Part shown: in pieces, positions 1-31,956 of the stretch
How positions within the stretch are numbered: position 1 is the first letter of the stretch
How the letters are laid out: every line of letters starts with the position of its first letter
IMG/VR virus record: IMGVR_UViG_2648501802_000002
From: a virus
Lineage: Duplodnaviria; Heunggongvirae; Uroviricota; Caudoviricetes
Strand: one strand, 5' to 3'
Length of the DNA: 64,000 nt
Notes under the pieces: model-generated
The model's input: the letters and a program-made list of their open reading frames with translations, nothing else
Database searches by the model: none
What the model was told of the DNA's origin: nothing
Made by a program: the position numbers and the translations under genes

Positions 1-951
1 GCCATCAACAATAGTTGTCACAGCCTGCTTGTGCGCTTCTCCTGATAAAGCCTGCATCTGGACAAAATCATTGGCTGCCGCATTAAGCGCCGTCAGAACA
101 TTACGCATATCCGGATCAGGTTCTTCTGCAACCATCCTTACCAGGCGCGCATCCTTATATGCCTTGGCAAAGATCGCGTTTTGTATACGGTCTACAAGTT
201 GCCGCGTTGGTCGCCCATCTTCCGTTACAAGGCCAGCAGCCTGTGTGGCACCAACTTGCGTCATGAATCCGCGAATAAACGCGTCATTACTGCGGCTAAG
301 CAGATCTCCACTTTCTGACGGGTTAAACAACGCCATCATCGCCGGTGTTATGCTGTCGGCATCAACAAAAGCCTTTTCACTGGCTGCCATTTCCTGGAGA
401 TCAGAAATATTTGAGTCCTTGGCAAACTGAACACGGTCAGCCTTCGTTAACCGGCGGCGCACCAGTACCGGAGCCGTCATTGATTCAACCTTTTCAGGCC
501 GTATGCCGAATTCGGTCGCATGTTCAATCAGGTACTCCCGATACCGATCCGCATTACCGTCCTGATAGGCTTTAATGATCCCCATGGTCCGCCCATTACC
601 TGACTCAACGGCATTGTCCTCACCAATTATTGGCGCGCCATGGCTGGATAAACCGGAATCGGTAAGCTGGGCAGGACGCAAATCCTTGGATATCTGGTTG
701 ACCTGAAGAAGGCTGGATGCGCGGGTCCGGTCGCGCGGCTGAAGTTCCTGGGGATAGTCTGGATTAATTTTCCCATCCAGAGTATTGGATACCAAAAGAA
801 CTGAGGCATCGACGATATCAAACGCTGTTTTTACCTCGTCTCCCTTCGCTGTCACCACATACGAAACCCGCCCGTAATCGGGCAGGTTTTTTAGCAGCTC
901 GATCAGCGTTTCTATGCTGGTGGCCATCACCACCTGATCGCTTAAGCTCAT
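1..951 (-). CDS. Partial CDS (N-terminal part; runs off the window start); ParB/Srx-like N-terminal domain protein
   Basis: Manual minus-strand translation from ATG near 949-951 (MSLSDQVVMATSIETL...) stays open to position 1; motifs QPRDRTR and SGNGRT resemble the ParB/sulfiredoxin fold. Absent from the ORF track because there is no stop in the window. Confidence 0.45.
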   Translation of the reverse strand, partial: MSLSDQVVMATSIETLIELLKNLPDYGRVSYVVTAKGDEVKTAFDIVDASVLLVSNTLDGKINPDYPQELQPRDRTRASSLLQVNQISKDLRPAQLTDSGLSSHGAPIIGEDNAVESGNGRTMGIIKAYQDGNADRYREYLIEHATEFGIRPEKVESMTAPVLVRRRLTKADRVQFAKDSNISDLQEMAASEKAFVDADSITPAMMALFNPSESGDLLSRSNDAFIRGFMTQVGATQAAGLVTEDGRPTRQLVDRIQNAIFAKAYKDARLVRMVAEEPDPDMRNVLTALNAAANDFVQMQALSGEAHKQAVTTIVDG

Positions 952-963
952 CCCTGTTACGCC

Positions 964-1329
964 TTATGCTGCCTCTTTAATGTTGGCGGCTATCCATGCC
1001 GCCGTGTGCTGTTTAACCTGGTCCAGATCGATGTATGTGCCAACATATTGACTCAAGTCCTGCAACGTACCGATAAATGCATCGGTGCTCTGATCGACGA
1101 ATTTATCAGCCAGGAAATCAGCAACCAGTTTTGGCACACCATCATGTACCGAAGGTTGTTTTTCCTCGCCACTACCGCCGCCGGACGCGCCGTACCCCAT
1201 CTGTTGCATGATCTGGTCAATTTCATCGCTGATATCCAGCAACTCCATGCCACTCGCGGTAGCCGCTTTGGACATCAGAGCATCCAACTTATCGCTGAGA
1301 TCCATTAACTCAATAGCTGATAGTGTCAT
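964..1329 (-). CDS. Hypothetical small acidic protein (position of ddrA in a P1 dar-like operon)
   Basis: ORF track 121 aa; co-directional with and overlapping the stop of the upstream 639-aa gene. Confidence 0.5.
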   Translation of the reverse strand: MTLSAIELMDLSDKLDALMSKAATASGMELLDISDEIDQIMQQMGYGASGGGSGEEKQPSVHDGVPKLVADFLADKFVDQSTDAFIGTLQDLSQYVGTYIDLDQVKQHTAAWIAANIKEAA

Positions 1330-3245
1330 GCCGCTACCCCCGCTTTCTGGATTGCTACCAGCAGATCAGCCAGGTGGCGAGCTGCGCCGTTAACCAGCTC
1401 TTCGTTTTCCTCAAAACGTCCGGCAGCCTGAAGGGCTGCAATCGCTTCCCGGACATTGCCCCGGGCGTTACGGATCTCCGCCATGTCAGTGCTTTGTATA
1501 TCCATCACGTTATTGAGATATTCAATGGCTTTATTAGCCTCTGCATCTGCTTCGCTAACCGTTTCATCAGGCTGTGCCGGGGCCGGTTCTGGCTGAGTAA
1601 TCTCACCGACTTCGGCCTGCAATGCATTGATCATGCTCTGCACCATTTTCTCGGTGCCAGCGCCCCCAGGAAACGCAATATTGGGGAAAGTTTTTTGAAA
1701 CTGAGTTTTCAGCATTACGCGGAACTCGTCTGGTGAGCTGGTGGCCAGCTCCAGAGCTTTTTGTGCATATTTGCCAAACGGACCATTAGTAAGTGTCTTC
1801 GCCAGGAAGTCGAAAGAATCCTCGCGAGGCAATAACTTCAGGTCGTACTCACTCATTTGCTGATCAGAAAGCGGGGTATCGTAAGTAGCAATGCCGTAGC
1901 GTGCATATTCATAATACGGGTCACCTTCATCAGGGCGCGGCAGAATTGCTTTGTTACCTTCAGGTATTGCGCCAGGGGCCGCCGGACGCATTTGCAGGGC
2001 ATATCGATATGCACCTACAGAGACTTCTGGTTCAGGCGAAGAGCTACCGGTATCCTCCGCTGGTTCAGGCTCGACGTTTTCCGGTTTATGTTCTTCTGGT
2101 TGGACCAGGTATTCCGATACATTACCCGCTTTATAGGCTTTAAACAGCTTGCCGATCGCATCTGCCATGTCCACACCCTGTATGGATTTAGCCTTGATCA
2201 TGTATACGCTGCCATCCGGATCGGTTAACTGGATATACCCTTCGCCGCCCCCAATGAATTGCTTCATTGATGCACCATTACTGAGCGTCACTTCCCCGTC
2301 CATATGCATACGATTTTTGATACTGGCAAGGCGATCCGTCAGCGCGCGAGAGTGCCCACCAGTCATCCCCGCTGGAGCAATGGTATCGCGCCCACCAGTG
2401 CGATTGAGCTGATCAATCTCCGTCTGCAAACGCTCATTCTCTTCATAAAGAGAATCCGCTTCCGATGCAACAGCGTTAATTTTCTGCTCCAGATCTGCCT
2501 TCTGCCCTTCTACCGCTGCCACCTGATCCGCGAGGTCGCTCATGGCATCCTCTTTCTGGTCACTGTCAGCCTGTAGTTGGGTTATTTCATCAACAAGGGC
2601 TTTTTTCTTCTTCTGCGCACGCTGGAATTTTGCCGAGTTTTTCTCTGCAAGGTTGGCAAGTTTCATGGTGACCTGCGCCAGCGTCATATCACGTCCACTC
2701 ATCGGAGCAACGGTGTGAGTAACGTCTTTTTTATTCAGTAAGAACTGGAAAGCAACCAGCGTATCGCTATTGGTGATCCGGTTTTCCGCTGTCGGGCTAT
2801 GAAACAGAATGCTGATAGTCTGACCATCACTGAGCGGAATAATGGCTGGCAGGACTGGCAGCCCGTTAACGTTACGTGCCCGGCCAATTTCAGCGCCGCC
2901 GATCGCGCGCGCGCCGCTCTGGGCCACATCCCCCGTTTTATCACTCCCCGCAGAGATTCCGGTACCATTCAGCTTCTGGTTCAATGCCCGGACAAATGCC
3001 TGCATGGTCCGGTGTAACTGCAAACGAGTAGAACTAATCGCCTCCAATAAATCCGTAGCACACCAGTGGATCGGCGTGTCATAGAAGAACGTTGCCTCGA
3101 TTTCCTCCAGGGTGTTGGATTCCGTCATCAGATAGCGGTCCTGACCAGCCATTAATGCGCGATATTCATCATCAGTCACCGGCGGGGGAAGCACGTCAAG
3201 CCCCGGCTTAATCGTCACCCCTTTATTGATATTGAACTGTTCCAT
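1326..3245 (-). CDS. Large coiled-coil protein, candidate DarA-like antirestriction / internal virion protein
   Basis: ORF track 639 aa; central coiled-coil (LQADSDQKEDAMSDLADQVAAVEGQKADLEQK); shares a domain with the upstream 203-aa protein (DGQxIxI...KNSAKFQ). The size and the paralogous upstream fragment fit P1 hdf-darA from memory; not verified by alignment. Confidence 0.5.
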   Translation of the reverse strand: MEQFNINKGVTIKPGLDVLPPPVTDDEYRALMAGQDRYLMTESNTLEEIEATFFYDTPIHWCATDLLEAISSTRLQLHRTMQAFVRALNQKLNGTGISAGSDKTGDVAQSGARAIGGAEIGRARNVNGLPVLPAIIPLSDGQTISILFHSPTAENRITNSDTLVAFQFLLNKKDVTHTVAPMSGRDMTLAQVTMKLANLAEKNSAKFQRAQKKKKALVDEITQLQADSDQKEDAMSDLADQVAAVEGQKADLEQKINAVASEADSLYEENERLQTEIDQLNRTGGRDTIAPAGMTGGHSRALTDRLASIKNRMHMDGEVTLSNGASMKQFIGGGEGYIQLTDPDGSVYMIKAKSIQGVDMADAIGKLFKAYKAGNVSEYLVQPEEHKPENVEPEPAEDTGSSSPEPEVSVGAYRYALQMRPAAPGAIPEGNKAILPRPDEGDPYYEYARYGIATYDTPLSDQQMSEYDLKLLPREDSFDFLAKTLTNGPFGKYAQKALELATSSPDEFRVMLKTQFQKTFPNIAFPGGAGTEKMVQSMINALQAEVGEITQPEPAPAQPDETVSEADAEANKAIEYLNNVMDIQSTDMAEIRNARGNVREAIAALQAAGRFEENEELVNGAARHLADLLVAIQKAGVAA

Positions 3246-3246
3246 G

Positions 3247-3858
3247 TTAATTTCCTGCTTTCAGTTGCTTAAGACGGCGTTTGAGTTCGCCATTCCGTGC
3301 CTTTTCGTTATTGAGTCGGCCCGTCTCCTTATCCAACTTCGCCCGCAAATCTGTGATCTGCTGTTGATTGAAAGACACCGAATTCTGCGCGGACTTATAA
3401 GCGGCAACCACCTGAGCATTCCGCTGTTTTGCTTCTTGCAGGCGCTGAAAGTTGGATTTAACTGCCGGTTTCTTGTCTACCGGATTGGCAACACGCTTCG
3501 CTTTGGCGATCAGTGATTTCTGGAATTTCGCAGAGTTTTTGCGGGCCGCTTGCCCCATGACGGTACCAAGCGTCTTGATATCTGGCGACTGTGCGTTAGG
3601 AATAGATTTTCCATTCAGTTTCACAGCCGATATATCACCAGTATCGTTTACCTGTATGGCAAGAATTTGTCCGTCGTTAAGAACCAGTTTTGCGGTTTTA
3701 ACTTTAACGCCATCTTTCGTTGTTGCGCGGTTGCTGGAGTCAACCTCAATTACCGTAACACCGGTTTTATTGATCGCCGCGATAAGGGATTTCAGCCCCT
3801 TTTCATTAACCTGGTCAAAATCGACCGTTGCATACTTATTTTTCGTCATCTGACACAT
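3247..3858 (-). CDS. Hdf-like protein (homolog of a fragment of the 639-aa protein)
   Basis: ORF track 203 aa; motif ...LNDGQILAIQVND...ARKNSAKFQ matches ...LSDGQTISILFHS...AEKNSAKFQ in the downstream 639-aa protein. Confidence 0.5.
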   Translation of the reverse strand: MCQMTKNKYATVDFDQVNEKGLKSLIAAINKTGVTVIEVDSSNRATTKDGVKVKTAKLVLNDGQILAIQVNDTGDISAVKLNGKSIPNAQSPDIKTLGTVMGQAARKNSAKFQKSLIAKAKRVANPVDKKPAVKSNFQRLQEAKQRNAQVVAAYKSAQNSVSFNQQQITDLRAKLDKETGRLNNEKARNGELKRRLKQLKAGN

Positions 3859-4279
3859 CCTGTGCGAGATTTATTACGTAACTTCTGCGGATTTGCTGAG
3901 TAACAGGGAAAATCCGATACAACGGGTTAATGAACGAGTCGCCATGCGTAACCATGACGTTGAAATGCCACAGTCGCTCTCCTTTACCCATATATTCAGT
4001 GGGTATGTACAACCATTCACTGTTTTCGCCCTGTTCAGCCGACGTCAGACAACGTTGTTCGCCTTCAATCACTGTCGTCGGCTTCTGAACATCGCGGATC
4101 CAATATCTGACCGTTGCGCCGCGCAAAAACGGGAATTTAGACCGGTATTTGAACGGCACCCGAATGAAACCCGGTTTAATTTCCACATCACCAAGTTCTA
4201 AATGCGTGATGTCCTTGCGTTTTAGCAAATAGCGATCGGCTAAGGCTAACGCAAGAACGCATACACCCCAGCCAATCAT
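3836..4279 (-). CDS. Hypothetical protein (position of P1 lydB-like gene)
   Basis: ORF track 147 aa; overlaps neighbours in operon fashion. Confidence 0.45.
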   Translation of the reverse strand: MIGWGVCVLALALADRYLLKRKDITHLELGDVEIKPGFIRVPFKYRSKFPFLRGATVRYWIRDVQKPTTVIEGEQRCLTSAEQGENSEWLYIPTEYMGKGERLWHFNVMVTHGDSFINPLYRIFPVTQQIRRSYVINLAQDVSDDEK

Positions 4280-4605
4280 TTCCCACCTCCCTTTTTCACC
4301 AAACTTGTAAGAACATTCAGAATGCTATCGATATTCACTCGTTTCATCCCTGAAATCACCTCATGACCGTTATTGCTGGCTATCGTTACCATTAAGTACG
4401 TAATTGATAACTCCCAGCCTTCGTGTTGCCCCAATAGGTACGCCACCGCGCCAGCTGTCACTGCAACAAAGATCTCCGTAACCAATCCCAACAAGTTGCC
4501 AGACTGGCGACCATCTCGGACATCCATCAGGAACGTGCCTATCCCACCAATTACTGAAAGCAGGAGCGCAATAGCAACTGGAGCTAATTCCTGTGTGTCA
4601 AGCAC
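4276..4605 (-). CDS. Small membrane protein, holin-like (P1 LydA-like position)
   Basis: ORF track 109 aa; hydrophobic helices (VAIALLLSVIGGIGTFLM; IFVAVTAGAVAYLLG) and charged C-terminus; first gene of a co-directional operon. Confidence 0.45.
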   Translation of the reverse strand: MLDTQELAPVAIALLLSVIGGIGTFLMDVRDGRQSGNLLGLVTEIFVAVTAGAVAYLLGQHEGWELSITYLMVTIASNNGHEVISGMKRVNIDSILNVLTSLVKKGGGK

Positions 4606-4705
4606 AAGTTCCCTCCTACGTTGTCAGGAGGTAATGGTATGCAAAGTAACTTCTCAACCGGTCATGTTACTTGACATCCTCCACGTCCTTTAGAGCGTGG
4701 AGGAT

Positions 4706-5177
4706 GTGTGCGCCCAGCATGGGCGCGATCTTGGAGGTGAAAGCCCTCCCGCGAGCTGACCACAGCGAGCGAAAGGAAGTGCAACTGCGTGAGGGCGGCT
4801 AGGCGTGGGGAGGAAGCACGGAATGAACCCGTGAGCCGATGAACAAGAATCGGATATGAGGCGCGATGGAGCAAGGCGAGCAGGCACATCACTGCGAAGC
4901 TTTCGTGACAAAGTCGCGTAGATCCGACGGTTGTGCGGGGAAGGATCGCGTTCTTACCTGGGGAGTTCTCGCCTCATGCCTGAAAGGGCAACGTCGTAAG
5001 ACGGAGCGAGAAGTCAGCAGAGGCCGTAGTAGTCAGGACTCCGACGAAGGGCCGAACGAGAAGGAAAGCCAAAAGATATGACTCTTGACAGGACATTGCG
5101 TCAGAAGCCGGGGAAGCCCGGTACGGACCCGCATGCCGGGTGGTGTGGCAGGGGCGCAGCCTTGTGCTCCCCCCTAT
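4706..5177 (+). ncRNA. Candidate ORF-less group II intron-like structured RNA (possibly a decayed remnant)
   Basis: GC-rich segment with no credible ORF. Starts GTGCGCCCAGCATGGG (group II GUGYG 5' consensus, close to Ll.LtrB GUGCGCCCAGAUAGGG from memory) directly 3' of a perfect 11-bp hairpin (CATCCTCCACG-N10-CGTGGAGGATG, 4675-4706). Many GNRA-like loops; ends ...CUCCCCCCUAU (AY 3' end). No RT/IEP ORF, and I could not pick out an unambiguous domain V by eye. Confidence 0.3.
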
Positions 5178-5603
5178 GCCGATCAAGCAGAACATTGTGC
5201 TGGGCCTCTGACGCATCTCCTTGATGGTCTTGGCATCGTGCTTAAGTGGATTGGTGTCGTCTCTGATAGGCTCATGGAGGCAGAATGAAACTCAAAAATC
5301 CGGGACAGCACGCAAAACAGGCTGCACAAAAAGCGCAGGTTGCGTAGGAGTGGAATCCCGCTCCCAAAAAATGGTGCAGAAGTTGCGGCAGTGGTCATCC
5401 GACGCACTGGAAAATAACAAACCCGCCGTGACCAGAATCGGAGGCCTGAGGGAGTGACCGTAAAACCGGATAACCCAGGCAGCAAATACCCGCTGGATGA
5501 GGCATGGTTCCGGCAGATAATACCGAAAACCGCCAGACACACTGGATAATCAGTAGAAATAACCCATTAAAATCATTATAATAATTGGGCACATTATTAT
5601 ATT

Positions 5604-6167
5604 ATGCTGAATAATAGAGACATGAATATTAATGAACTTAAAGACTGTATTCACTATGAAGTAATCGGTAGCGAGCGTCCTTTCTCCTGGCGAAAGGCAA
5701 TTGTTCGCGCAATAAAACATAGAAGAGTTCGTTATTTATTTTGGTGGCGCATAGCCAAATACCTTTTTGATAAAGGCGGATACTGTCGGAAGATTGCGGG
5801 GAAAATGGAACGTTTCATTCTTGATAAATATAGTGTAACAGTCCCTTTAACTGTAAATATAGGGAAAGGCTTTGATATTTCTTATCTCAACGGTGTTGTT
5901 ATCGGTCACAAAGTAACCATTGGTGAAAATTGTTCAATAAAACCAGGGGTAACTATTGGGCTACGTGGTGATTTTAATGATATGGATATTGTTATAGGAC
6001 ATAATGTGACCATTGGTTGTAATGCCACCATTCTTGGTGGCAAAGTGCGTATAGGAAACAATGTCACAATAGGTGCTCATGCATTGGTATTGCATGATAT
6101 TCCTGATGATTCAACATTCATCACTAAATTTCAGTCTGAAGTTATCTGCTCGTCCTCTTGCACATAA
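5604..6167 (+). CDS. Hexapeptide-repeat (left-handed beta-helix) acetyltransferase, WcaF/LacA-like; moron
   Basis: ORF track 187 aa; hexapeptide repeats ([22 protein letters not shown]...[33 protein letters not shown]); AT-rich island; convergent with tfa; TATAAT-like box near 5577. Confidence 0.8.
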
Positions 6168-6748
6168 CCCTGATTCATCAGCTCTGGCCATACGATATCC
6201 GGAGCTGTACTGGTGTCAATTCGACTCACTAATACTCTGTATTTTCTCCAGGAATCCAGTTGTGAATTTTCCTCGGTTGTTGCTATTTCAAGATTAACTG
6301 CATCCTGCAGAATTGCGATGTTATCTGTTGCCTCCTGAATCAACCTTGCCTTTTTCTCTTCCGCTTCCCGTATCCGAAACAGTTTTTCTGCTTCCTCATC
6401 CTTCACCCAGGATACGCCGTCCCACTTCTGATACTCCCCTGCTGGCGACAACCAGGTGACATTCTCTGGTAACGGTCCGAGTTCAGAAATAAACAACGCG
6501 TCCCCCGATGCCACGTCATAGACCGTTTTACCACGATGGTCTTCAACAATAATCCATGATTCATTTTCACTGTTAAAAACTGCCACAAAGCCAGCAGGAA
6601 TTTCCGGTGGGGCGATATCTGTAGAATTAGCTGGTAGCCCTGTATGAGGTGGAATATATGCGTCACCTTCACCAATAAACTCATTAGTTCCGGCGAGCAG
6701 GTTATAAATTTTTACAGTACGTGATTGTTCACTCATTCTGAATGCCAT
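6131..6748 (-). CDS. tfa: Tail fibre assembly protein Tfa
   Basis: ORF track 205 aa; N-terminus [41 protein letters not shown] is near-identical to lambda Tfa as I recall it. Confidence 0.9.
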
Positions 6749-7640
6749 TATGCAAGCCTCACAATATAATTAAATGCGATGTTTTTAACGGTGTTTTCCG
6801 AGTTACCAGCAGCGTTAACGGTGATGGTGTGTCCATGTGAACCAATCGCAACAGAGTGCGTATGAGCGCCAATATCAACTGTATGTGCATGCGCCCCTGC
6901 ACTTGCAGCGGTGCCTGATACTGAGTGGGTGTGTGCACCAGAAGAAGGCACAGTTCCATTCCCCACCACAGTGCCGCTTGATGAGCCATCAAGCCAGTCG
7001 AAATTCATACCGCCACCATCTGGTCTCCTTAATGGAACGGTATGAGTATGTGCGCCAGCACTATTTGCAGTACCAGATACATTGTGGGTATGTGCACCTG
7101 TGTTATTCGTTGATTTAGTACCGTAATCAAACGAAGATGTGGTTTTCGTACCCAAATCCGTATTGGATGCGCTGGCGCTGTGGGTGTGCGATTTAATGCC
7201 ATCCTGTTCCAGAGACAATACGTCCCGACCACTGGCGGGTTTGCCCTTGATTGTCCAGCCACGCATATCCGGGATCACGCCTGACGGATAAGCGGCTGCA
7301 AGTTTCGGGTATGCAGATTTGTCAAAAGTCTGTCCCTGCATCAGGGCGTAACCAGACGGCACAGTATCTGATGGCCACGGATGCGGAACACCAACAGGAA
7401 GGACCTCAATATCCCCGGAACCATCAAACGAAACGTTATTAATTTTACGGGCTGTTTTCAGCTTTGTAGCCGTTGAGGCATTGCCGGACAGCTCACCAGA
7501 AATGCCACCAACAACTGTTAGATCACCAGTTATTGTGCCGCCTGAACTTTCCAGTTTTTTAGCAACATCACTCTTAATAGAGTCGATTTCTTTTTTTCAG
7601 ATTAGTTATATCTGCTGGTATCGTTGTCACTGTTGCCATA
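6748..7640 (-). pseudogene. Side tail fibre C-terminal (receptor-binding) gene interrupted by a +1 frameshift in an A7 tract
   Basis: ATG near 7638-7640 with AAGGA Shine-Dalgarno; reads [16 protein letters not shown] then hits a stop. The long frame (..[23 protein letters not shown]...[15 protein letters not shown]...GAHTHSV...[11 protein letters not shown], lambda Stf-like C-terminus) opens at the homopolymer (plus-strand T7 at about 7594-7600). A6 would give one ORF of about 297 aa. Confidence 0.65.
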
Positions 7641-7812
7641 TTAATTCCTTACGCCCATTCCCGCAGCGGTTGTTCTAATTGAACTTCAAAACCATCAAAC
7701 ATTTGTTGTTTCAAACTGTTGTTTAAAATACGAACATTAACGAAGAAGCCATCATTTTTAATCACTGTTGGTTCTTCGTTCTCGCCGTTTGGTATTTCGG
7801 TATATGTAACAC

Positions 7813-9240
7813 CTACAACATCAAGAAGAATGTTGTTTTGCAGCTCTTCATTATCGTGGTGCCGAGTTCTCTTAAACCAAGGTATTGGATAACAGCAAGG
7901 ACGCTTGTTTTGGACAGAATATCGCGACCGACTGACGTTAAGTCAGTCTGAGAAACAGTGTCTGTACCGGTAAAGTACGGCAGTTTATTTGCGCCTGTAG
8001 CAAGACCAGCAAGCGCGGTTAAAGTTGCATCCAGAGGCTGTTTGCCTGCCAGCGCATTTGTCATTGTTGTCGCAAAGTTCGGGTCATTACCAAGTGCTGC
8101 GGCAAGCTCATTCAGGGTATCAAGAGCTTCTGGTGATGAACCAACCAATGCGGATATGGCAGCTCTTACATAAGCAGTCGTAGCAATCTGCGTATTATTT
8201 GTGCCCTGCGCAGCCGTAGGCGCAGTAGGGACTCCCGTTAATGCAGGGCTTGCCAAAGGCGCTTTGAGGGCTAGGGCATTGTTGATAGTTGTGCTGAAAT
8301 TCGGGTCGTTATTGATCGCAGCAGCTATTTCTTTAAGCGTATCCAGTGTGCCAGGTGCACCGTTGATAAGTGCCGTTATAGCTGACTTAACAAAGGCTGT
8401 ATTTGCGATCTGCGTGCTATTTGTACCTTGCGCTGCCGTCGGCGCGGTTGGCGTTCCTGTCAGACTCGGGCTTTCTATTGGCGCTTTGGTATCAGCAAGA
8501 CCTTTTACAGACTTAACGGCTTTAGGGGTAGCCGCCATTGTTTCGCTGTCGCTGTTAGTTTCGCTACTGAGCTGAACTAATCCCTTTTGCGTTGTGCTTG
8601 CATCCTGTGCCGTATACTTGCTTTTCGCCAGATCGTAGGCTTTTTTAGCTGCCAGCGAACTTGCAGCAACATCACTTCTGCTACTGGTTACAGAGTCTGA
8701 AATATCAATGCCGATCGTGCGGTTAATACGCTCGGATGTATCAATCATCTCCTGGGTAATGGCTGATACGCCAGCAGGGATATTCACCGTACAAACAAGC
8801 AGCTCTCCATCTCCTAACTGATATGAATCGGTATAGGTTCTGGCAACAAATTCAGCCGCATGAATATGTGACGCGGTATTAACCTGATAGGTATCCTCTC
8901 CAAGGAGGTATCTTCCCTTCAGCACAATTGCATATTTCTTGCCTTCACTAAGTGCAAGAGAAATATCCTTACGGTGCCGAATAGTTACCTGGTAGAATTC
9001 ACCAATATCCACTGACGCAGCGCCAGCAGTTTTATCACCATCCACTGAGGTGATTAACAGGTTCATACCACCGCCAGGCTTCGGCAGGAAACCGGCATAA
9101 AACCCAGGATCAACAATTCCCCTGAATTTTCGGTTTAGCGCGGCTGACAGATATGGTTCGTGGTATTGCACATCAGCCACCAGAGCCAGTGACTCGGGCG
9201 ATGGGTAAGTAACTGATGTAACAACTGTAACGTCATTCAT
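7813..9240 (-). CDS. Tail fibre protein, N-terminal/constant part (Stf / P1 S-like)
   Basis: ORF track 7813..9327; start set at internal MNDVTVVTSV. Contains TTQKGLVQLSSETNSDSETMAATPKAVKSV and repeated SP(A/S)LTG(T/V)PTAPTAAQGTN fibre repeats. Ends abruptly after YLGLRELGTT. Confidence 0.8.
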   Translation of the reverse strand: MNDVTVVTSVTYPSPESLALVADVQYHEPYLSAALNRKFRGIVDPGFYAGFLPKPGGGMNLLITSVDGDKTAGAASVDIGEFYQVTIRHRKDISLALSEGKKYAIVLKGRYLLGEDTYQVNTASHIHAAEFVARTYTDSYQLGDGELLVCTVNIPAGVSAITQEMIDTSERINRTIGIDISDSVTSSRSDVAASSLAAKKAYDLAKSKYTAQDASTTQKGLVQLSSETNSDSETMAATPKAVKSVKGLADTKAPIESPSLTGTPTAPTAAQGTNSTQIANTAFVKSAITALINGAPGTLDTLKEIAAAINNDPNFSTTINNALALKAPLASPALTGVPTAPTAAQGTNNTQIATTAYVRAAISALVGSSPEALDTLNELAAALGNDPNFATTMTNALAGKQPLDATLTALAGLATGANKLPYFTGTDTVSQTDLTSVGRDILSKTSVLAVIQYLGLRELGTTIMKSCKTTFFLML

Positions 9241-9251
9241 CAAGCATATCC

Positions 9252-9686
9252 TTATGCTATAGTCGTGTTGATGGCCATAACTGCGGTATATGTTTTTCCC
9301 ACATACAGCGAGTCTTCCTGAACACAAATAATTGCGATGGGCTTATTCTCGTTATCCAGAACAACCAGAGTGTTGAATGGATAGTTTTTCCCTTCCTGCA
9401 ACTGGCTTTGATCAAGGTCCATTCGGACAGTAATTATCCCGCCAGAGTAGGTTGGGACGAGGTTGATGGTGCAAAATTGACTGGTCAGTTCTGCCAACTC
9501 GAAAGTCTTTGGCAGTTCTCCAATGTCATAAGTACCATCTTCATTTTTGGTAACCAGCGAACTGGTGCCGAAAACGGCCTTGCTGATTAAAAATCGAGAG
9601 CCTTTGTTAATGGACGATTCAGCGCGTCGCTGATAGTAATAATCCAACAACTGACTCTTATAGAGATTTGTTGAGACGTCAGACAT
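9252..9686 (-). CDS. Tail/baseplate-associated protein (P1 R-like position)
   Basis: ORF track 144 aa; directly upstream of the tail fibre gene in the same operon. Confidence 0.45.
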   Translation of the reverse strand: MSDVSTNLYKSQLLDYYYQRRAESSINKGSRFLISKAVFGTSSLVTKNEDGTYDIGELPKTFELAELTSQFCTINLVPTYSGGIITVRMDLDQSQLQEGKNYPFNTLVVLDNENKPIAIICVQEDSLYVGKTYTAVMAINTTIA

Positions 9687-9764
9687 GATTTTCCCTAATC
9701 AATGTTGTGAAGCCTCATTGTAAGAGAAGTAACTTGTCACCCCGCCCTGCGGACGGGGTAATTG

Positions 9765-10604
9765 TCAGGCATCGCTATCCAGCAGCAAATCATCTGCGCG
9801 GGAGCGATCAAACGTAGGCGTTGCTTTCACAATAGTGCCGCCCGGCGTTGCAGTGATCGGGGCACTAATCGACGTAACTCCGGCAAGCGAAGTTGTATCC
9901 GAAGTTTCAAACCAGCAGTACGCTTTTTCGGTATCAGAAATCTCGTTCAAAGTGATCATGTCGGCCTGTTCATTTACAACAACCGACAAATAGAGCGTAA
10001 GCCCATCAAACACTATATGCAGTGGCAGTAGAGGCTTTACGAACTGATTAAACTTTCTGAGAATTTCTTCTGTAATTGCGGACTGATCTATCGTGCCAGT
10101 AATACCCATTGTCCTGGCCAGGTCGTTTATGGGAATACTGATCATCCCTCTGGAAGTCAGAAACATCTCGCCGAATGTGCCGCCAGTAGTCTCCAGTGTG
10201 CTTTCTGGTATTAGAACTGTGCCATAGGGATGACGCTCAAGGTCCACCGGTGCATATATCGGATCCCATAAAACAGAAATACCGTTAAATTCGCGGTAAA
10301 TTGTCTGGTTTATAGGACGTTCAGTTCCCTTAAAGTGGATCTCATCAAGCCGCTGTTGTAACAACATCGGAACGGAAGATGAGTTCGAGGTTCTGATAGT
10401 AAAGAACTGGCCAAGTTCATTTGTCCTGGTCTCCAGATCCTCCTTGCTCATGGAGAAAATAGACTTCCGGTTGGTAATTCGCTCCAACCATGGGTCAACA
10501 AAGGTGTCCATCATTGACTGAACCAAATCAGCCAATGATTTATAGAGCAATGACTTTTGCTTAGCTGATGTAAGCCGGTTATTAAACCAGGAACGCTGCA
10601 TCAC
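9765..10604 (-). CDS. Tail/baseplate protein
   Basis: ORF track 279 aa; operon context with overlapping stop/start. Confidence 0.45.
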   Translation of the reverse strand: MMQRSWFNNRLTSAKQKSLLYKSLADLVQSMMDTFVDPWLERITNRKSIFSMSKEDLETRTNELGQFFTIRTSNSSSVPMLLQQRLDEIHFKGTERPINQTIYREFNGISVLWDPIYAPVDLERHPYGTVLIPESTLETTGGTFGEMFLTSRGMISIPINDLARTMGITGTIDQSAITEEILRKFNQFVKPLLPLHIVFDGLTLYLSVVVNEQADMITLNEISDTEKAYCWFETSDTTSLAGVTSISAPITATPGGTIVKATPTFDRSRADDLLLDSDA

Positions 10605-12034
10605 TCCTCCTCATACGAAATATTAAAGGTGGAGCTTTCTGTATCCAGATAAACGAAATCGTAAAAGCCGTTGGACTCATTCCACTCGACAAATTCCAGA
10701 TAAAAGTCGCGGAAATAACCCAGCGTTTCGATAAACGCCCAAACGTCTTTTTTCTTAATCAGGATGTACTTTCCGACGCGGTTCGGATCAAAGAAAGTTG
10801 AGTCGCGCCCAAATTTTGTTTCCAGTGCCGACTTCAGCTCATCGGTCACATTCTCAATGGTCAGGCTTGCCGATATCCGTCCGGTGATGGTTATCTTAAA
10901 TGGTAGTTTTCTGACCTCTTTATAAGAGAATTTCTTGTTCAGTTCATTCGGTACCTTCTTAAAGGCAGTCAGGATCATTTCTTCAAGCTCTGACTGGCTT
11001 TTATTTGGATGCCATCCTGAAATAAATATCTTATTGATATTCTGAACATTATAAGCACCATCTAATTTCTCTTGCTGGCCTTCGCCCCATGCCTTTACCC
11101 AGGACAGCCCCGGGATGTTACGAACCAGAAAATACGTATAGTCCCCGCCCCATACGACCTGATCATCATAGGCAAGGTAATATTGTGCACGGTTACGTGT
11201 GATCTCCGTTGTTTCAGCATCGGTACCTGCGGTTATAGGTGTCGTTGTCTTAACTGAAATCAAATTAGCTAAATCAGCCGCAGAATCGACAGGCGTCAGG
11301 TTTTGGCCAGCAACCAGGGTTATATCGCCGTTGGTGCACCATACCTTAAGCGTAATTGTCGAACCTTCTGGCGGTATTTGCCCAATTAGCCCATCGCCGA
11401 ATCGAACCCCCAACTGCTCGGATGGTTTATAAAACTCAACGTAGACCTGGCTTTTACTACCGGCTAACCGGAACATAGTGCTGGAAGACCACTGCGTGGT
11501 CTTCCCATCGGTTGTCACGAATACTTCCAGCTTATAGCAGACAGCAGTAAGAGCCTTTGATAACACGACTTCCAGAAATTCTTTGGCTGCCGTAACGGTA
11601 TATGTCACCTCCTGGATTTCCAACTGTGCCACTTCTACCGTACCGGTGCCGTCAACCAACCTGCATACATCCATAGTCATGTAAGGGTACTGGTCGTCAG
11701 ATATTAAAGGCATGTTTTTGGGGATTACCGCTGGGGCATCTTCACTTGTGGCGGTGATCTCAATCATCCCCGATGACGGTGTTGGCTTGGTACCAACATA
11801 ACTGTTCGTTTCTGCCGCAGCCAGGATAGAGGAACGCCGCGTCGCGGTCGATATAAAGCCTTCAGCCAGCGCCGCATCGGCATACTGAAAGCACCTGTAG
11901 ACAATCTGGGTAATAAACAATGTCAGCATCGAGACAAATTGAGAGCCGACAAACTTCGACCAGAATGAATCTTTCTCGACAAGCTCTTCAAACTCTGCAC
12001 GAATACTGTCTTTAGTCGGTGTTGTTTTACTCAT
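10601..12034 (-). CDS. Baseplate protein (J/gp47-like; P1 BplA-like position)
   Basis: ORF track 477 aa; size and position within a myovirus-type baseplate cluster. Confidence 0.45.
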   Translation of the reverse strand: MSKTTPTKDSIRAEFEELVEKDSFWSKFVGSQFVSMLTLFITQIVYRCFQYADAALAEGFISTATRRSSILAAAETNSYVGTKPTPSSGMIEITATSEDAPAVIPKNMPLISDDQYPYMTMDVCRLVDGTGTVEVAQLEIQEVTYTVTAAKEFLEVVLSKALTAVCYKLEVFVTTDGKTTQWSSSTMFRLAGSKSQVYVEFYKPSEQLGVRFGDGLIGQIPPEGSTITLKVWCTNGDITLVAGQNLTPVDSAADLANLISVKTTTPITAGTDAETTEITRNRAQYYLAYDDQVVWGGDYTYFLVRNIPGLSWVKAWGEGQQEKLDGAYNVQNINKIFISGWHPNKSQSELEEMILTAFKKVPNELNKKFSYKEVRKLPFKITITGRISASLTIENVTDELKSALETKFGRDSTFFDPNRVGKYILIKKKDVWAFIETLGYFRDFYLEFVEWNESNGFYDFVYLDTESSTFNISYEEE

Positions 12035-12390
12035 AGCACCACGTCCTGTGTGATAGTTATATCCCTGATACGAATGGATATTTTCAACTTATCAAAAGCA
12101 TCTCCCTCGGCTACTGACAAGCCAGAAATCGGTATGTCAGGTAAATCTACCGTCAGTTTTTGCAACAGCATTGCCTCAACCGCAATTTGAACATGCGACA
12201 AGTTGGTCGGTTCGTGTTTAAACTGCGGTAAAACATTGCCCCATGACGGATCTCCGTATACCTCACCCTGATAAGTGTTTAGCCACTCATATAAACGAGC
12301 GCCCCAGGCCTCCTCCTGGGACTCATACGTTTTTACGCCGGATAACTCCAGCGTCAGCAAAGGATCAATTTCGTTATTGTTGGCCATCAA
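12031..12390 (-). CDS. Small baseplate assembly protein (gp25/W-like position)
   Basis: ORF track 119 aa; translationally coupled to its neighbours. Confidence 0.4.
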   Translation of the reverse strand: MMANNNEIDPLLTLELSGVKTYESQEEAWGARLYEWLNTYQGEVYGDPSWGNVLPQFKHEPTNLSHVQIAVEAMLLQKLTVDLPDIPISGLSVAEGDAFDKLKISIRIRDITITQDVVL

Positions 12391-15300
12391 TCAACTCTCG
12401 CGTAGTCATTCATCAACGGATCATCAATTGACAGTGGCACCGTGCGCATAACGCCCGGTTGAGGCGTGCTGACCTTTACGACAGTTCCCTGGCCTTTCGC
12501 CGAGTCTTTAGTGTGCTCTTCAATCCTGGCAAGCAATGAGGTCATCTGCGCAAACAGCCGCTTCGTTTCACCATCAAGTGAAACGGTATTATCAGCCAAC
12601 TGCATTGTCGGCTTGGCACCAGAGCCGCCAAGGTCACTAATAACCTGTCCGTCTATCTGCATACGACCGGTTGGTTGCTGCAAATCGTTGGCGGCAGTCG
12701 TCACCTGGGACGTGGAGGCTGGTTGAGGAGAGTTATTTGAGCGCATTCCCCGGGCATTAATGAGTTTGTCATACAGCCCATCAATCCCCATTTGTGCACC
12801 GAGTTGGTCAAAGTAACTTGAGTTGTTTGCTACCGGACGTGCCTCTTCAACTGGCATAGGTGTATCAACATACACATTGCCAGCAGCCGTTGCGGTTCCC
12901 CTTCCTCGTGCACGTTCTTCGAGGGTTCCCTGAACGACTTCCCGACGCATCCCCCGACCATTCATGAATTTGTTGACCAGATCGTTAACGCCAACAGCAT
13001 TACCGATTTTGTCTACCAAACCGCCTTTCTCAAACGGGCTATCACCAGGGGTAAACGCCAGACCAGTAGACTGATCGATAACGGCGTTATCAGGCAGTGG
13101 TCCCCTCACTCCATATTGCGCCCCACCCTGTGCTCCTGCTCCAGGTGTATAGATTTCACCACCTAAATAGCGAGCACGATGAGTATTGACCTTGATCGCG
13201 TACTCACGGTTTTCTTTCGATAAGTCACCTGTGCCTTTTTTCCACTTATTGATAGTGCCAAACCCAGCATTATATGCAGTGATGGCCTCGTTTAAGTCTC
13301 CATTGGCTTGCTTCAGATACTTGCTCATGAGAAGAGCCGCAGCTTCTGCCGATTTCACAGGATCAAATGCATCCTGTTCCGATATCCCTGTCTCTTTACG
13401 AGCAATACTCGTGAACTGGAACATCCCGAGTGCGCCACCACTTAACTTTCCATCTGGTGATCTTGTAAGCGGAGACTTTGCGTTAGGATCCCCTCCTGAT
13501 TCAGTTGCCGCAATCGAGTAAAGAGTGCCTTCAGGAAGGCCATATTTATTCTCTAGTTCAGCAAAATACGGAGCCAGCTTATCCAGATTTGCCTTACCTT
13601 CAGCGCCAAGGCTTCCGACTTTTACATCTAAGTTGCCATTGTTGTAGGTATCCGCAGCTTTCTGAATGTCATTCCTAGTGCCAGTAGTATTAAGCGACGA
13701 TGATGATGAGCTATTTTGACCAATAGCATTATCAATTTTCTGCAACGCTCGATTGCCCGTTTCTACGGCATTTGCATTGATAATCTGATTGGCAGTTTCT
13801 TTAACTGTTTTATTGCTATCTTTCGCCGTCTCTAGGGATGCATTTACAACACGAGTGACAATATTAGCCTTTTTAGGGGTATATTCAGTCTTAGGAGCAT
13901 TGTCCTCCTGACTTTCTTTAGCTGGTGTTTTTAATTCAGGTGTAACCTCTTTCGCATCCGCTTTGTTGACTAGCTTTGATGCAACCCAGGCCACAGGGGT
14001 GCTCTGAACAGCGGCATCGGCAACCTTACCAGGAAGCTCTTTTGCGGCATTCCATAGATTACTACCAGCCTCTTTAATGTATTTTCCCGGGTTCTTAATG
14101 AAATCAATTGCACTATCAATTGCATCACTGAAAACCTTTTTCAGGTTATCGACAGTAAAGAAGTCTTTGATGGCGTCTAATTTTTCGTTCAGACTCTTGG
14201 TTGTGTCACTGAACCAGGCTGAAATAGCATCGCCAATCTTGGCTGTGTAATCGTTGAATGTTGTGGATATGGTGTCACCAAGGTTAGAAATATATGTTTC
14301 TAAATTGGTAATCCCACTATCAATGGCCTGGGCAATACTTTCCGTCGAAAATGATTGCAACATATTGCCGATATCCTCAAATCCAAGTGATTTGAGAACG
14401 CCACCAATGGCATTGCTAATACCAGATACCAGTCCTCCCATATCGAGAACGTTAGCCAGTGTATAAGCCGCTTTTTGCTGAAAAGATGGATCTTCCCCAT
14501 CCTTAAGCCCAAAGGTCCGACGTTGTGCTTCTGTATCATTCCAACCGGTTACCGCATCATAGATACCTCCAGCCACCGTGCCGACTAGCGGAATTGCGCG
14601 TAAAGCCCCCTTTGCAAAAGCCTTAACACCTAGTTTCTCCAATCCCTTAGTTGCAAGTTTTCCGGCACCGCGAGTAGCCAATTCGCCAGCTTCTTTGGCA
14701 GCAGCTTTTTTCCCACCAAAGCCCAATAAGCTTGCAACTTTTTTTATACCTAAAGCGCCTAGTGCCATCGAGCCAACTTTCTTTAGTGCCCCACGGCAAA
14801 AAATAAGGGAAGCAATACCACCGGCCCCCTTCCCTAACAGGCTAAATAATTTGGACAGCAAGCCGCCCTTCTTTTTCCCGGTGTTTTTGGCTATCTGATC
14901 AAGGGCGCTGAGAATCTTGTCATTGCCCTCTTTAATTTCGCTGGTCTGATCCTGAAGTTCCTGAACCGTCCGTTTTTGGGTGTTAACCTGAACGACATCG
15001 GCACTACTTTGCGATTTACGCCTAAAAAAACCTTTTCTACGGCTGTTATCGTCATTGCCACGAATCACATCGGCAATTGACTTTCTGGCACCATTAAGCG
15101 AACCGCCAACTTCTTTTGATATTCCGCCAAGCTCCTTTCCTGCTGCCCACAATGGACCAGCAACGGCATAACCTAAAGCATCGACGGCACGAGTCTCTGA
15201 AGGGTTACCTATGCCTTCAGCTACTTTTGACAGTTTTTTTAATAAACCCGATTCAGCATTTAGACGCTCATCATCCTCTTTGCGCCTAGCTTTTTCAGCA

Positions 15301-15815
15301 CGTTCAGCACGGGCATCTTCCGCTGCGGCCTTACTCCCTGACTTCCCAATAAAACGACCACGCGCATCGCGTTGGTTTTGGCTTTTTTGCGCACCGCCTT
15401 TTTGACCGAACATTTCGCGAGCGTGTTCGGCTGCTTCGGTCCGTTGTGCCTTTACATCCTCTGGTATAGCCTTCCTGCGTCGTTTTTTACCCTTTGGTGT
15501 GGTTGATTTGGCCCGCTGTTCCTGTTGAGCAACATCTTCCTGAACTACACGAGAAACGTCCCCTAAGTTAAGCCGTTTCATTGCCTCAACAATAGGGTCC
15601 ACTGATGGCGCATTGGCCACAAAGTCTGGCCGTGAATTTTCGATTGTGCGATTTAATGCCGACACACTGCGAGAGACAGGATCAACAGTTGCAACGCGCC
15701 CCCCTTTCAAATCTTCAACAGCTTCCCGGATACCTGCAAGCTCTTCCAGCTCTTTTGCGCTGGCGGTTTCAACTGTCCTTATAACATCGTCAATGTTGGC
15801 GTTTTTTCGTTCCAT
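12387..15815 (-). CDS. Large tail/injection protein with lytic transglycosylase (SLT) domain; P1 Sit-like
   Basis: ORF track 1142 aa; SLT motif YSIAATESGGDPNAKS...GALGMFQFTS...AYNAGFG; Gly/Ala/Lys-rich extended regions. Size matches P1 Sit (about 1140 aa) from memory. Confidence 0.7.
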   Translation of the reverse strand: MERKNANIDDVIRTVETASAKELEELAGIREAVEDLKGGRVATVDPVSRSVSALNRTIENSRPDFVANAPSVDPIVEAMKRLNLGDVSRVVQEDVAQQEQRAKSTTPKGKKRRRKAIPEDVKAQRTEAAEHAREMFGQKGGAQKSQNQRDARGRFIGKSGSKAAAEDARAERAEKARRKEDDERLNAESGLLKKLSKVAEGIGNPSETRAVDALGYAVAGPLWAAGKELGGISKEVGGSLNGARKSIADVIRGNDDNSRRKGFFRRKSQSSADVVQVNTQKRTVQELQDQTSEIKEGNDKILSALDQIAKNTGKKKGGLLSKLFSLLGKGAGGIASLIFCRGALKKVGSMALGALGIKKVASLLGFGGKKAAAKEAGELATRGAGKLATKGLEKLGVKAFAKGALRAIPLVGTVAGGIYDAVTGWNDTEAQRRTFGLKDGEDPSFQQKAAYTLANVLDMGGLVSGISNAIGGVLKSLGFEDIGNMLQSFSTESIAQAIDSGITNLETYISNLGDTISTTFNDYTAKIGDAISAWFSDTTKSLNEKLDAIKDFFTVDNLKKVFSDAIDSAIDFIKNPGKYIKEAGSNLWNAAKELPGKVADAAVQSTPVAWVASKLVNKADAKEVTPELKTPAKESQEDNAPKTEYTPKKANIVTRVVNASLETAKDSNKTVKETANQIINANAVETGNRALQKIDNAIGQNSSSSSSLNTTGTRNDIQKAADTYNNGNLDVKVGSLGAEGKANLDKLAPYFAELENKYGLPEGTLYSIAATESGGDPNAKSPLTRSPDGKLSGGALGMFQFTSIARKETGISEQDAFDPVKSAEAAALLMSKYLKQANGDLNEAITAYNAGFGTINKWKKGTGDLSKENREYAIKVNTHRARYLGGEIYTPGAGAQGGAQYGVRGPLPDNAVIDQSTGLAFTPGDSPFEKGGLVDKIGNAVGVNDLVNKFMNGRGMRREVVQGTLEERARGRGTATAAGNVYVDTPMPVEEARPVANNSSYFDQLGAQMGIDGLYDKLINARGMRSNNSPQPASTSQVTTAANDLQQPTGRMQIDGQVISDLGGSGAKPTMQLADNTVSLDGETKRLFAQMTSLLARIEEHTKDSAKGQGTVVKVSTPQPGVMRTVPLSIDDPLMNDYARVD

Positions 15816-15896
15816 GATCTTATCGCCTACCGTTTCGGTTTAAGTTTTTCTTCCAGTTTCTCCAACAGGAAAAACGCATAGGATTCAGTAAGCCTT

Positions 15897-16637
15897 TCAG
15901 CGTCCTGAATCGGTATACCCCCATACAAAACCAGGTTGGACACTAAGGTCTGATAGCTTTTCAATCCCCACCTGTGGAATGAAGTCGGTAGCCCGAAAGG
16001 GCACCCACAGACGGGTATATGCACCCTCTGTGGACTCCTTTTTATCCTGATTTGGGCATTTATGCGGCGGGAGACGAAGACGCATTTCACCTTTATCGAT
16101 GTAGCACGGCAAACCATGTTCGAGCTTTTCATGAGCCAGTCGGATGTGTGCCGCCAGCTTCATAAATTCAGTATCAATGGCCATCCGTTTAATCGTTTCA
16201 TAACGACGCTCAGCCTGATCTTCACGAGTACCGCTAACATCGTTATAAAGCTCACACTGATAAGCGAATTCCCAAAAACGCAAATCAACGATCGCTTCTT
16301 TGAATTCCGCGTCGTCTTCAGGTGGCAATGCTGCACGGCGCATCTCCAGCATTTCCATTGCCCAACCATCAAGCGGCACGATACGCCATTGATAAGGCAC
16401 TCCCTCTACAGACACCTCAATATCGTCAATGAACGGTTCCGCTTCCAGGACCTGGATATCTTCAGCCAGGGCATTCATATCGCAATCGTAATAATGCTCT
16501 TTACCGCAATGTTTACAGGTGTAGGTGAATGTCTCGACCGGTGTTTCACGGGAGCCGGTAAATATCCACCATAACGCGGTAATCCGGTCCTGCGCCGTCC
16601 ATGTCAGGGGATCATGTTTCGCGGGTTCAGCCAGCAA
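15897..16637 (-). CDS. Hypothetical protein with Cys-rich zinc-ribbon-like motif
   Basis: ORF track 246 aa (TYTCKHCGKEHYYDCD); first gene of the non-lambdoid block, just past the truncated stf. Confidence 0.5.
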   Translation of the reverse strand: MLAEPAKHDPLTWTAQDRITALWWIFTGSRETPVETFTYTCKHCGKEHYYDCDMNALAEDIQVLEAEPFIDDIEVSVEGVPYQWRIVPLDGWAMEMLEMRRAALPPEDDAEFKEAIVDLRFWEFAYQCELYNDVSGTREDQAERRYETIKRMAIDTEFMKLAAHIRLAHEKLEHGLPCYIDKGEMRLRLPPHKCPNQDKKESTEGAYTRLWVPFRATDFIPQVGIEKLSDLSVQPGFVWGYTDSGR

Positions 16638-16642
16638 GGCTT

Positions 16643-17123: not shown

Positions 17124-17186
17124 ATCCACTCCACAAAAAAGCCGCCTGAACCGGCGGGCTGTCATAACACTGTGTTACCTGGCTAA

Positions 17187-17782: not shown

Positions 17783-17789
17783 CGCATAA

Positions 17790-31858: not shown

Positions 31859-31956
31859 AATTAAATATTCCTTAAAAATTTGCGTAATTGTGAATAGATG
31901 GAGTAATGAGCTATCCAGCCCTGACACCAGCTCCCATCCGGAAGCTGACAAATGTG

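Follow-up and report, generated by a model that had tools for sequence, protein, structure and literature searches.

The five genes at positions 964-4605 of the window, by which we mean the whole stretch of 64,000 nucleotides that was analysed, are, with a probability of roughly 0.93, a darA late operon that belongs to a P1-like phage-plasmid (genus Punavirus) and occupies its usual position in the genome. Judged from the sequence, their assignment to P1 lydA-lydB-hdf-darA-ddrA as an orthologous operon, and more than a merely Dar-like one, is fully supported. The lambdoid prophage situated beside the P1-like block is not part of the Dar system, and in our judgement the join between the two reflects misassembly or else a secondary rearrangement.

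The darA operon and its identity with that of phage P1

ORF calling on the minus strand returned exactly the five co-directional, tightly coupled genes at 964-4605 that an earlier note on this DNA had described, with intergenic gaps of -4, -23, +1, and -4 nt in the order lydA-lydB-hdf-darA-ddrA. All five reading frames are intact. The ParB-domain protein mentioned there as lying downstream is encoded by the 5' part of ddrB, which begins 12 nt beyond ddrA, is collinear with P1 ddrB and runs off the window start, so that the remainder of the gene lies beyond the window. The features are the following:

4634..4652, minus strand: LPdar, P1 late promoter of the darA operon (-22 box and -10), 19 nt, AAGTTACTTTGCATACCAT, matching the LPdar annotated in P1 NC_005856 at 19/19 positions
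4276..4605, minus strand: lydA, holin, 109 aa, GTG start (P1 LydA 109/109 aa; Pfam Phage_holin_3_3; PHROG 1527 holin)
3836..4279, minus strand: lydB, LydA-holin antagonist, 147 aa (P1 LydB 145/147 aa; Pfam LydB, E=8e-104, full length)
3247..3858, minus strand: hdf (homolog of DarA fragment), capsid-internal DarA partner, 203 aa (P1 Hdf 199/203 aa; Pfam DarA_N, E=3.8e-21)
1326..3245, minus strand: darA (defence against restriction protein A), capsid-internal, 639 aa (P1 DarA 629/639 aa; Pfam DarA_N, E=1.5e-42, and DarA_C, E=5.7e-17)
964..1329, minus strand: ddrA, Dar component, 121 aa (P1 DdrA 118/121 aa; PHROG 1855 "DdrA-like anti-restriction protein", E=1e-57)
1..951, minus strand: ddrB, 5' part, 317 codons, open frame without stop (Pfam ddrB-ParB, E=1e-39; PHROG 2299 positions 1-317 of 995)

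The homology to P1 stops 13 nt upstream of LPdar, at position 4665 of the window. LPdar is described as requiring the P1 activator Lpa. For hdf, an alternative start at Met4 would give a 200-aa form, which is the form called by PGAP in relatives. No Pfam family was found for DdrA in the Pfam search.

Over its whole length, the operon DNA is approximately 98% identical to that of P1 and of 18 other P1-like phages. The darA operon of P1 itself (NC_005856 27542-31230) does not differ from it in the order, lengths and overlaps of the genes or in the promoter, and its DNA is 98.1% identical. The protein comparison with P1 LydA, LydB, Hdf, DarA, and DdrA, which had been proposed as a check, gave matches for all five (97.5-100% identity, 19 amino-acid substitutions in total), confirming the fit to the P1 gene set that had been suspected.

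The claim of a domain shared by the 203-aa and the 639-aa protein was likewise borne out, since Hdf and DarA align with 28% identity over 105 aa (BLASTP, E=6e-4) and have the Pfam domain DarA_N in common. This similarity is far beyond chance, because the entire operon shares 98% DNA identity with P1. Hdf matches chain H ("Hdf") of PDB entry 9ukm over residues 1-203 (E=3e-121) and also the Hdf-like PHROG, and DarA matches chain I of the same entry over residues 1-639. Due to the P1 DNA identity and the PDB matches the identity of the operon is therefore settled. That there is no homology to the P1 Dar proteins, and that Hdf and DarA share nothing but a generic structural repeat, e.g., a coiled coil, at a locus that is not Dar, is ruled out: coiled-coil stretches occur in both proteins and DarA has weak matches to coiled-coil families, but what they have in common is specifically the DarA_N domain, well above the Pfam cut-offs in both proteins, which are each approximately 98% identical to P1 Hdf and DarA, respectively, and match 9ukm.

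The components that define a Dar system are present in their usual arrangement, namely a DarA of ~639 aa with both DarA_N and DarA_C, Hdf as a small paralog of the DarA N-terminus just upstream of darA, and DdrA and DdrB directly downstream of darA, the latter by its N-terminal 317 aa. Co-transcription with lydA and lydB from LPdar is predicted by the identical promoter and by genes that overlap or abut. The ten DarA substitutions relative to P1 are located at positions 10, 35, 275, 279, 319, 333, 395, 503, 583, and 607, none of them in the capsid-contact loops 102-116, 321-326, and 342-346, and all four substitutions in Hdf (27, 61, 78, and 85) are situated outside the capsid-binding helix 135-203 (loops and helix from PMC12810830). 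In an exact protein look-up, no identical DarA (639 aa) or Sit (1142 aa) was on record. The same look-up for BplA (477 aa) returned only ordinary P1-like contigs with an intact pmgB followed by tub and pmgC.

The surrounding block and its relatives

The operon is embedded in a longer stretch of P1-like DNA:

1..16652, minus strand: P1-like (punavirus phage-plasmid) block of 16.6 kb in P1 gene order, holding the operon

The gene order of this block is ddrB, ddrA, darA, hdf, lydB, lydA, an insertion composed of an intron remnant, an acetyltransferase gene, tfa and a fibre gene, and then R, 16, bplA, pmgA, sit, and the 5'-truncated pmgB. Positions 1-12000 of the window are covered to 73-76% at 97% identity by P1, P7, SJ46, and RCS47, and positions 12000-16652 match pmgA-sit-pmgB. 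The operon had been regarded as unexpectedly placed beside lambdoid head genes, a view that does not hold: the order around it is native to P1, and the lambdoid coat gene lies 26 kb away. The window lacks the rest of the P1 genome, i.e., lpa, the head genes 23, pro, and prt, as well as darB, ulx, and the replication and partition genes. The genes for gp23, Pro, Lpa, DarB, and Ulx are located elsewhere in the P1 genome, and no P1 DNA was found beyond position 16652.

Upstream of LPdar, P1 carries lydC, cin and the invertible C segment, whereas the element in the window has a group II intron remnant, a serine acetyltransferase gene and a fixed fibre/tfa module, which at 6351-7380 is 84-89% identical to lambdoid fibres. 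The same operon with the same neighbours, including a fibre region without cin, was observed in the E. coli and Salmonella P1-like elements P7, SJ46, RCS47, JL22, vB_EcoM-813R1, NZ_CP083486, and JAAQMK010000018.

To the P1-like contig JAAQMK010000018 the block is 99.3-99.5% identical with one small indel (7597). Compared to this contig, 1,587 nt of S, a tail fibre gene, are missing at 7858/7859, where the junction is blunt, and a homopolymer frameshift at 7597 affects the distal fibre gene. The stop-rich stretch 7510-7858, which lies inside the S region, was considered as an intron and rejected, as a 92-aa ORF ends and a distinct distal fibre gene begins within it; this fibre gene is known from other P1-like plasmids and is affected here by the deletion and the homopolymer frameshift. 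In the P1-like relatives, S, the distal fibre gene and pmgB are intact and the sequence continues into tub and pmgC, whereas in the window lambdoid DNA follows from inside pmgB. If the defects in S, the fibre gene and pmgB are real, this copy would be unable to make infectious particles and its Dar operon would be a relic.

Among 5,426 complete E. coli genomes, 472 contain the operon at an identity of at least 95%. Its 492 places are distributed over plasmids (481) and chromosome records (11), and the carriers are almost always P1-like plasmids of ~95 kb. PK8241 is one of the chromosome-record cases, where the P1-like element shows ordinary P1 gene order and no lambdoid genes over the 44 kb examined.

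The join to the lambdoid prophage

Two features locate the boundary of the block and the nearest lambdoid head gene:

16652..16653, no strand: blunt junction where the P1-like block meets a Rac-like lambdoid prophage, with the end of P1 homology and the start of lambdoid homology at the same base
30719-31951, strand not given: coat protein gene of the P22-coat type, nearest lambdoid head gene, 26 kb from the operon

At this junction pmgB has lost its initial 126 nt, and stf is interrupted behind the part for its N-terminal domain. Homologous recombination via the fibre/tfa module was rejected as a cause of the join, as 9 kb separate that module from the junction, which lies within pmgB and shows a microhomology of 1 nt. 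The lambdoid relatives that were matched, both phages and prophages, align to the lambdoid part of the window only, and none of them carries a P1-like block; a module embedded among a lambdoid phage's own genes and recurring in related lambdoid phages, as is typical of a lambdoid moron, was not observed.

We think that misassembly is likelier than a real fusion at 16652/16653, because the lambdoid side beside the junction carries many small indels. In detail, 11 indel columns and 6 substitutions were counted in its first 1.5 kb against a 99.7%-identical relative, a ratio indicative of sequencing or polishing errors and not of evolution. It is possible, though doubtful, that the join is real and that a defective P1-like fragment became joined to a chromosomal Rac-like prophage at the tail end of the latter. 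Such a fusion would have originated by illegitimate recombination or by a deletion after integration, leaving the Dar operon intact and probably as a silent relic. The sequence is indeed continuous without Ns, the operon does occur on chromosome records (PK8241 among them), and the other damage to the block, i.e., the S deletion, the fibre frameshift and the pmgB truncation, is compatible with decay. Nevertheless, the join is blunt and lacks an IS element, and the P1 side, at 99.5% identity to intact plasmids without a single indel over 8.8 kb, argues against a long decay. The element of PK8241, with its ordinary P1 order and no lambdoid genes over the 44 kb examined, likewise speaks against a real fusion. 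Furthermore, no record was found to span the junction when window positions 14500-19000 were compared by megablast with the 5,426 complete E. coli genomes, and three contig collections gave the same result: no exact match to a junction 40-mer in the genome contig collection, and none to a junction 26-mer in the viral or metagenome contig collections.

It appears improbable that the join is real and that the source chromosome carries a composite prophage, in which at least 16.6 kb of P1-type late genes, including an intact Dar operon with its own promoter, have been joined to a Rac-like siphovirus prophage at its tail end and in which the operon might be kept as still useful. A true fusion, in which a siphovirus prophage harbours a myovirus late-gene block with its antirestriction operon intact, would be modestly interesting. 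In that case, a P1-like phage that resides in the same cell or superinfects it could possibly be supplied with Dar proteins in trans, and it is tempting to regard the operon as a possible first step to capture by a different capsid lineage. The hybrid of P1 and lambdoid DNA that the window seems to show should not be accepted as it stands. Its anomalies comprise two blunt junctions (7858/7859 and 16652/16653) and small indels clustered in the tail and fibre genes. Indels that may be errors are located at 7597, 16707-18139, 22354, 22538, 22541, 27006-7, and 28005.

Presumed action of the Dar proteins

Expression, packaging and antirestriction are described here after published work on P1, the window itself providing the gene identity, the intact frames, the identical promoter and the P1 gene order. 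Late in lytic growth, a lydA-lydB-hdf-darA-ddrA-ddrB transcript would be made from the Lpa-dependent LPdar, and the timing of lysis would be set by the holin LydA and its antagonist LydB. Hdf-DarA pairs would then enter the P1 procapsid, bind the inner capsid surface at penton-hexon junctions and touch the DNA, and the P1 prohead protease would remove the N-terminal 70-90 residues of DarA. The pair would favour heads of normal size and would be required for loading DdrA, DdrB, and DarB as well as Ulx. At infection, the Dar proteins are expected to exit with the DNA and to shield it in cis from type I restriction. This scheme follows the mechanism established for P1 (PMC12810830, PMC9024508, PMC12707154), where the Dar proteins are packaged into the virion and protect DNA in cis from type I restriction (PMC9024508, PMC12707154, PMC12810830).

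The earlier note had raised the question of whether the operon works with the lambdoid capsid, which finds no support, as a distance of 12 kb lies between the operon and the first lambdoid DNA, which follows a blunt junction without homology that cuts two genes. That a lambdoid phage captured the Dar module, with DarA and Hdf packaged into and injected from its capsid, is very improbable. The physical adjacency in the window and the intact operon and promoter would fit, but the operon lies inside a 16.6-kb block whose P1 genes, for baseplate, tail and fibres, are unusable by a siphovirus, and far from the coat gene. Since no P1 DNA follows past 16652, lpa is not in the window, and none of the close lambdoid relatives matched here carries the block. 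In addition, DarA and Hdf attach to particular sites on the inner face of the P1 capsid protein gp23, and DarA is cleaved by P1 Pro (PMC12810830), whereas the coat protein encoded here is of the P22-coat type.

For the preferred reading as the late operon of a P1-like phage-plasmid, the Dar operon of the window is already known and is an ordinary P1 operon. Its discovery value is little, as it represents the well-studied P1 Dar system with 19 amino acids different. According to references cited in later papers, the genetics of P1 Dar date back to 1987, and the P1 virion proteome was published in 2022 and the in-capsid Dar structure in 2026 (PMC9024508, PMC12810830). The same strategy, an antirestriction protein that is packed into the head and co-injected with the DNA, is followed by phage T4, which is named beside P1 in this regard (PMC12810830). 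The T4 protein is the internal protein IPI*, and its target is the type IV nuclease GmrSD and not type I systems. Unlike DarA and Hdf, this protein has no head-size role described in the P1 Dar literature.

Identity and distribution of the operon

Five co-directional minus-strand genes were found at 964-4605 of the window, in exact agreement between the ORF list and an earlier note that had called a Dar-like antirestriction operon from sequence alone. All five products equal their P1 counterparts in length, and residue identities given below refer to global alignments with the P1 proteins.

4276-4605, minus strand: lydA, 109 aa, GTG start, 109/109 residues identical
3836-4279, minus strand: lydB, 147 aa, ATG start, 145/147 residues identical
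3247-3858, minus strand: hdf, 203 aa, ATG start, 199/203 residues identical
1326-3245, minus strand: darA, 639 aa, ATG start, 629/639 residues identical
964-1329, minus strand: ddrA, 121 aa, ATG start, 118/121 residues identical

With gaps of -4, -23, +1, and -4 nt, consecutive genes overlap or abut. A 317-codon open frame situated 12 nt past ddrA runs off the window start and represents a partial ddrB gene; due to its Pfam ddrB-ParB domain (E=1e-39) it had been described as encoding a ParB-domain protein.

The proposed similarity of the 203-aa and 639-aa proteins was borne out by BLASTP (28% identity over 105 residues, E=6e-4) and by the Pfam domain DarA_N, which occurs in both far over the cut-off. 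Further Pfam matches are DarA_C in DarA, LydB, and Phage_holin_3_3, and the PHROGs annotations comprise 'DdrA-like anti-restriction protein', 'Hdf-like antirestriction', 'lysis determining protein', and holin. DarA and Hdf match in full length chain I ('Defense against restriction protein A') and chain H ('Hdf'), respectively, of the P1 structure PDB 9ukm. Using megablast, window 900-4700 matched 19 P1-like phage records with 99% query coverage and 98.1-98.6% identity, including P1 (NC_005856, AF234172/3, AJ000741), P7, SJ46, and RCS47; DdrA, DarA, Hdf, LydB, and LydA are the annotated features beneath the match. The family assignment is thus correct: the locus is the P1 operon itself, and the finding is already known. 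In case of hdf the start is ambiguous, since P1 and the PDB entry carry the 203-aa form, and PGAP and the gene calls of relatives a 200-aa form starting at Met4, with AGGA approximately 9 nt upstream.

The operon occurs with at least 95% identity in 472 of 5,426 complete E. coli genomes, where 481 of its 492 places are on plasmids. Its promoter LPdar (-22 box and -10) at 4634-4652 is the same as the annotated P1 LPdar in all 19 nt, and P1 homology ends at 4665, 13 nt further upstream. LPdar, a late promoter, depends on the P1 activator Lpa; lpa is absent from the window, since no P1 DNA is present past 16652.

The P1-like block and its fibre region

Window 1-16652 is P1-like throughout, in the order ddrB, operon, S, R, 16, bplA, pmgA, sit, and pmgB, and 2187-16652 shares 99.3-99.5% identity with the P1-like contig JAAQMK010000018 (L012). 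Upstream of LPdar, P1 carries lydC, cin, and the invertible C segment, whereas the window element contains a fixed fibre tip and the following features.

4666-5540, plus strand: group II intron remnant (5' part), lying between LPdar and the acetyltransferase gene
5604-6167, plus strand: hexapeptide-repeat (serine) acetyltransferase gene
6131-6748: tail-fibre assembly gene

The intron remnant is recognized by the Rfam families group-II-D1D4-3 (4789-4953, 95.5 bits) and D1D4-1 (4971-5052), and starts with GTGCG at approximately 4709, straight after a perfect hairpin at 4675-4706. Neither an intact reverse-transcriptase ORF nor a domain V/VI match was found in it. It sits at the position of lydC-cin in P1 and is kept in P1-like plasmids. 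The acetyltransferase gene, which is found in many cin-less P1-like plasmids, is convergent with the tail-fibre assembly gene, and their ends overlap. The cin-less variant is common: 31 complete E. coli genomes contain window 3500-7500 at a coverage of at least 80%, nearly always on plasmids of about 95 kb.

Relative to L012 and a second relative with intact fibre genes, L005, the P1-type tail fibre is disrupted at two sites. At 7858/7859, a blunt out-of-frame join leaves out 1,587 nt belonging to S and to the small ORF that follows, so that S, after approximately 460 codons, runs into the middle part of a 92-aa ORF. At 7597, an A6 run has gained an A, which causes a frameshift in the distal fibre gene (start ATG 7628).

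Predicted function of the Dar proteins

In P1, where the mechanism was demonstrated, Dar proteins exit together with the DNA and shield it, in cis, against type I restriction (PMC12707154; PMC12810830), and all four Dar proteins encoded by the operon were detected in the virion proteome (PMC9024508). According to passages of PMC12810830 that cite Piya 2017, Hdf and DarA are packaged first, and deletion of either gene yields particles without any of the other Dar proteins and lowers normal-size heads from ~80% to ~15%. In cryo-EM, 55 DarA-Hdf pairs line the inside of the capsid at penton-hexon junctions and touch the DNA; DarA residues 1-69 are missing, which agrees with removal by the prohead protease Pro (PMC12810830). 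By orthology, Hdf and DarA of this copy would be loaded first and be needed for the other Dar proteins and for normal head size, and the Dar proteins would leave with the DNA and give it the same protection in cis. LydA and LydB, designated holin and LydA antagonist in the P1 record annotation and Pfam, would have the same roles here.

None of the 10 DarA substitutions relative to P1 falls in the capsid-contact loops 102-116, 321-326, and 342-346 (loops from PMC12810830), and all four Hdf substitutions are outside the capsid-binding helix 135-203. With all of these substitutions outside the capsid contacts, the sequence gives no reason to expect a function different from that in P1.

The earlier note considered the neighbourhood of lambdoid head genes unexpected. 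This view is not supported: genes for the P1 baseplate, tail, and fibres surround the operon, which is separated by 12 kb from the first lambdoid base and by 26 kb from the P22-type coat gene (30719-31951). DarA and Hdf attach to specific sites on the P1 capsid protein, and DarA is a substrate of the P1 protease (PMC12810830). The related lambdoid phages that were matched aligned to the lambdoid part of the window only, and a module working with the lambdoid head finds no support.

The junction and the lambdoid prophage

P1 homology stops and lambdoid homology starts at the same point, 16652/16653, in a blunt junction with a microhomology of 1 nt, where pmgB lacks its first 126 nt and stf is cut after the N-terminal domain. 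Compared to a 99.7%-identical chromosome, the first 1.5 kb on the lambdoid side show 11 indel columns versus 6 substitutions; these indels span 16707-18139, several being length changes in short single-base runs, and break stf, lom, and the J C-terminus. Further small indels, relative to relatives with 99.2-99.7% identity, occur at 22354, 22538, and 22541 (splitting the tail-tip gene K), 27006-7, and 28005. The 8.8 kb leading up to the junction on the P1 side are free of indels. Divergence does not normally give rise to such a surplus of indels relative to substitutions; the pattern points to poor sequence quality and resembles sequencing or polishing error. Together with the clustering of the anomalies in tail and fibre sequences, which recur from prophage to prophage, it argues for an assembly or polishing error as the likelier cause, with a probability of about 0.65-0.7.

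The junction is not spanned in any complete E. coli genome, exact searches in collections of genome, viral, and metagenome contigs did not recover it, and all contigs with identical BplA run past pmgB into normal P1 genes. A real illegitimate fusion at this blunt join ranks below error and appears rather unlikely. In the GenBank series ON470581-ON470617, P1-like and Rac-like phage records (e.g., vB_EcoM-673R5 and vB_EcoS-673R7) each closely match one part of the window; if the shared number, judged from the names only, denotes a common host strain, both elements co-reside as separate replicons. Only a real chromosomal P1/Rac composite retaining a functional Dar operon would add interest, and this reading is very improbable.

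The sequence from 16653 to the window end is a lambdoid prophage with the stf N-terminal domain, lom, J, tape measure, P22-type coat, portal, terminase, trkG, recE/recT, and the RalA sRNA, the last of which marks it as Rac-like.

62266-62444, minus strand: RalA antitoxin sRNA, 212 bits, over the Rfam gathering threshold
43857-44043, minus strand: STnc100 sRNA, over the Rfam gathering threshold
37898-39614, minus strand: TET-associated glycosyltransferase (Pfam TAGT, E=8e-35) and ParB_N-domain protein, adjoining the terminase genes
46718-50217: low-GC island (35-38% GC) with a 463-aa HATPase_c_3 protein, a 330-aa Methyltransf_35 protein, and a convergent C5 cytosine DNA methylase

The glycosyltransferase/ParB_N pair may constitute a DNA-modification module, and the low-GC island possibly represents a cassette for restriction-modification or defence.
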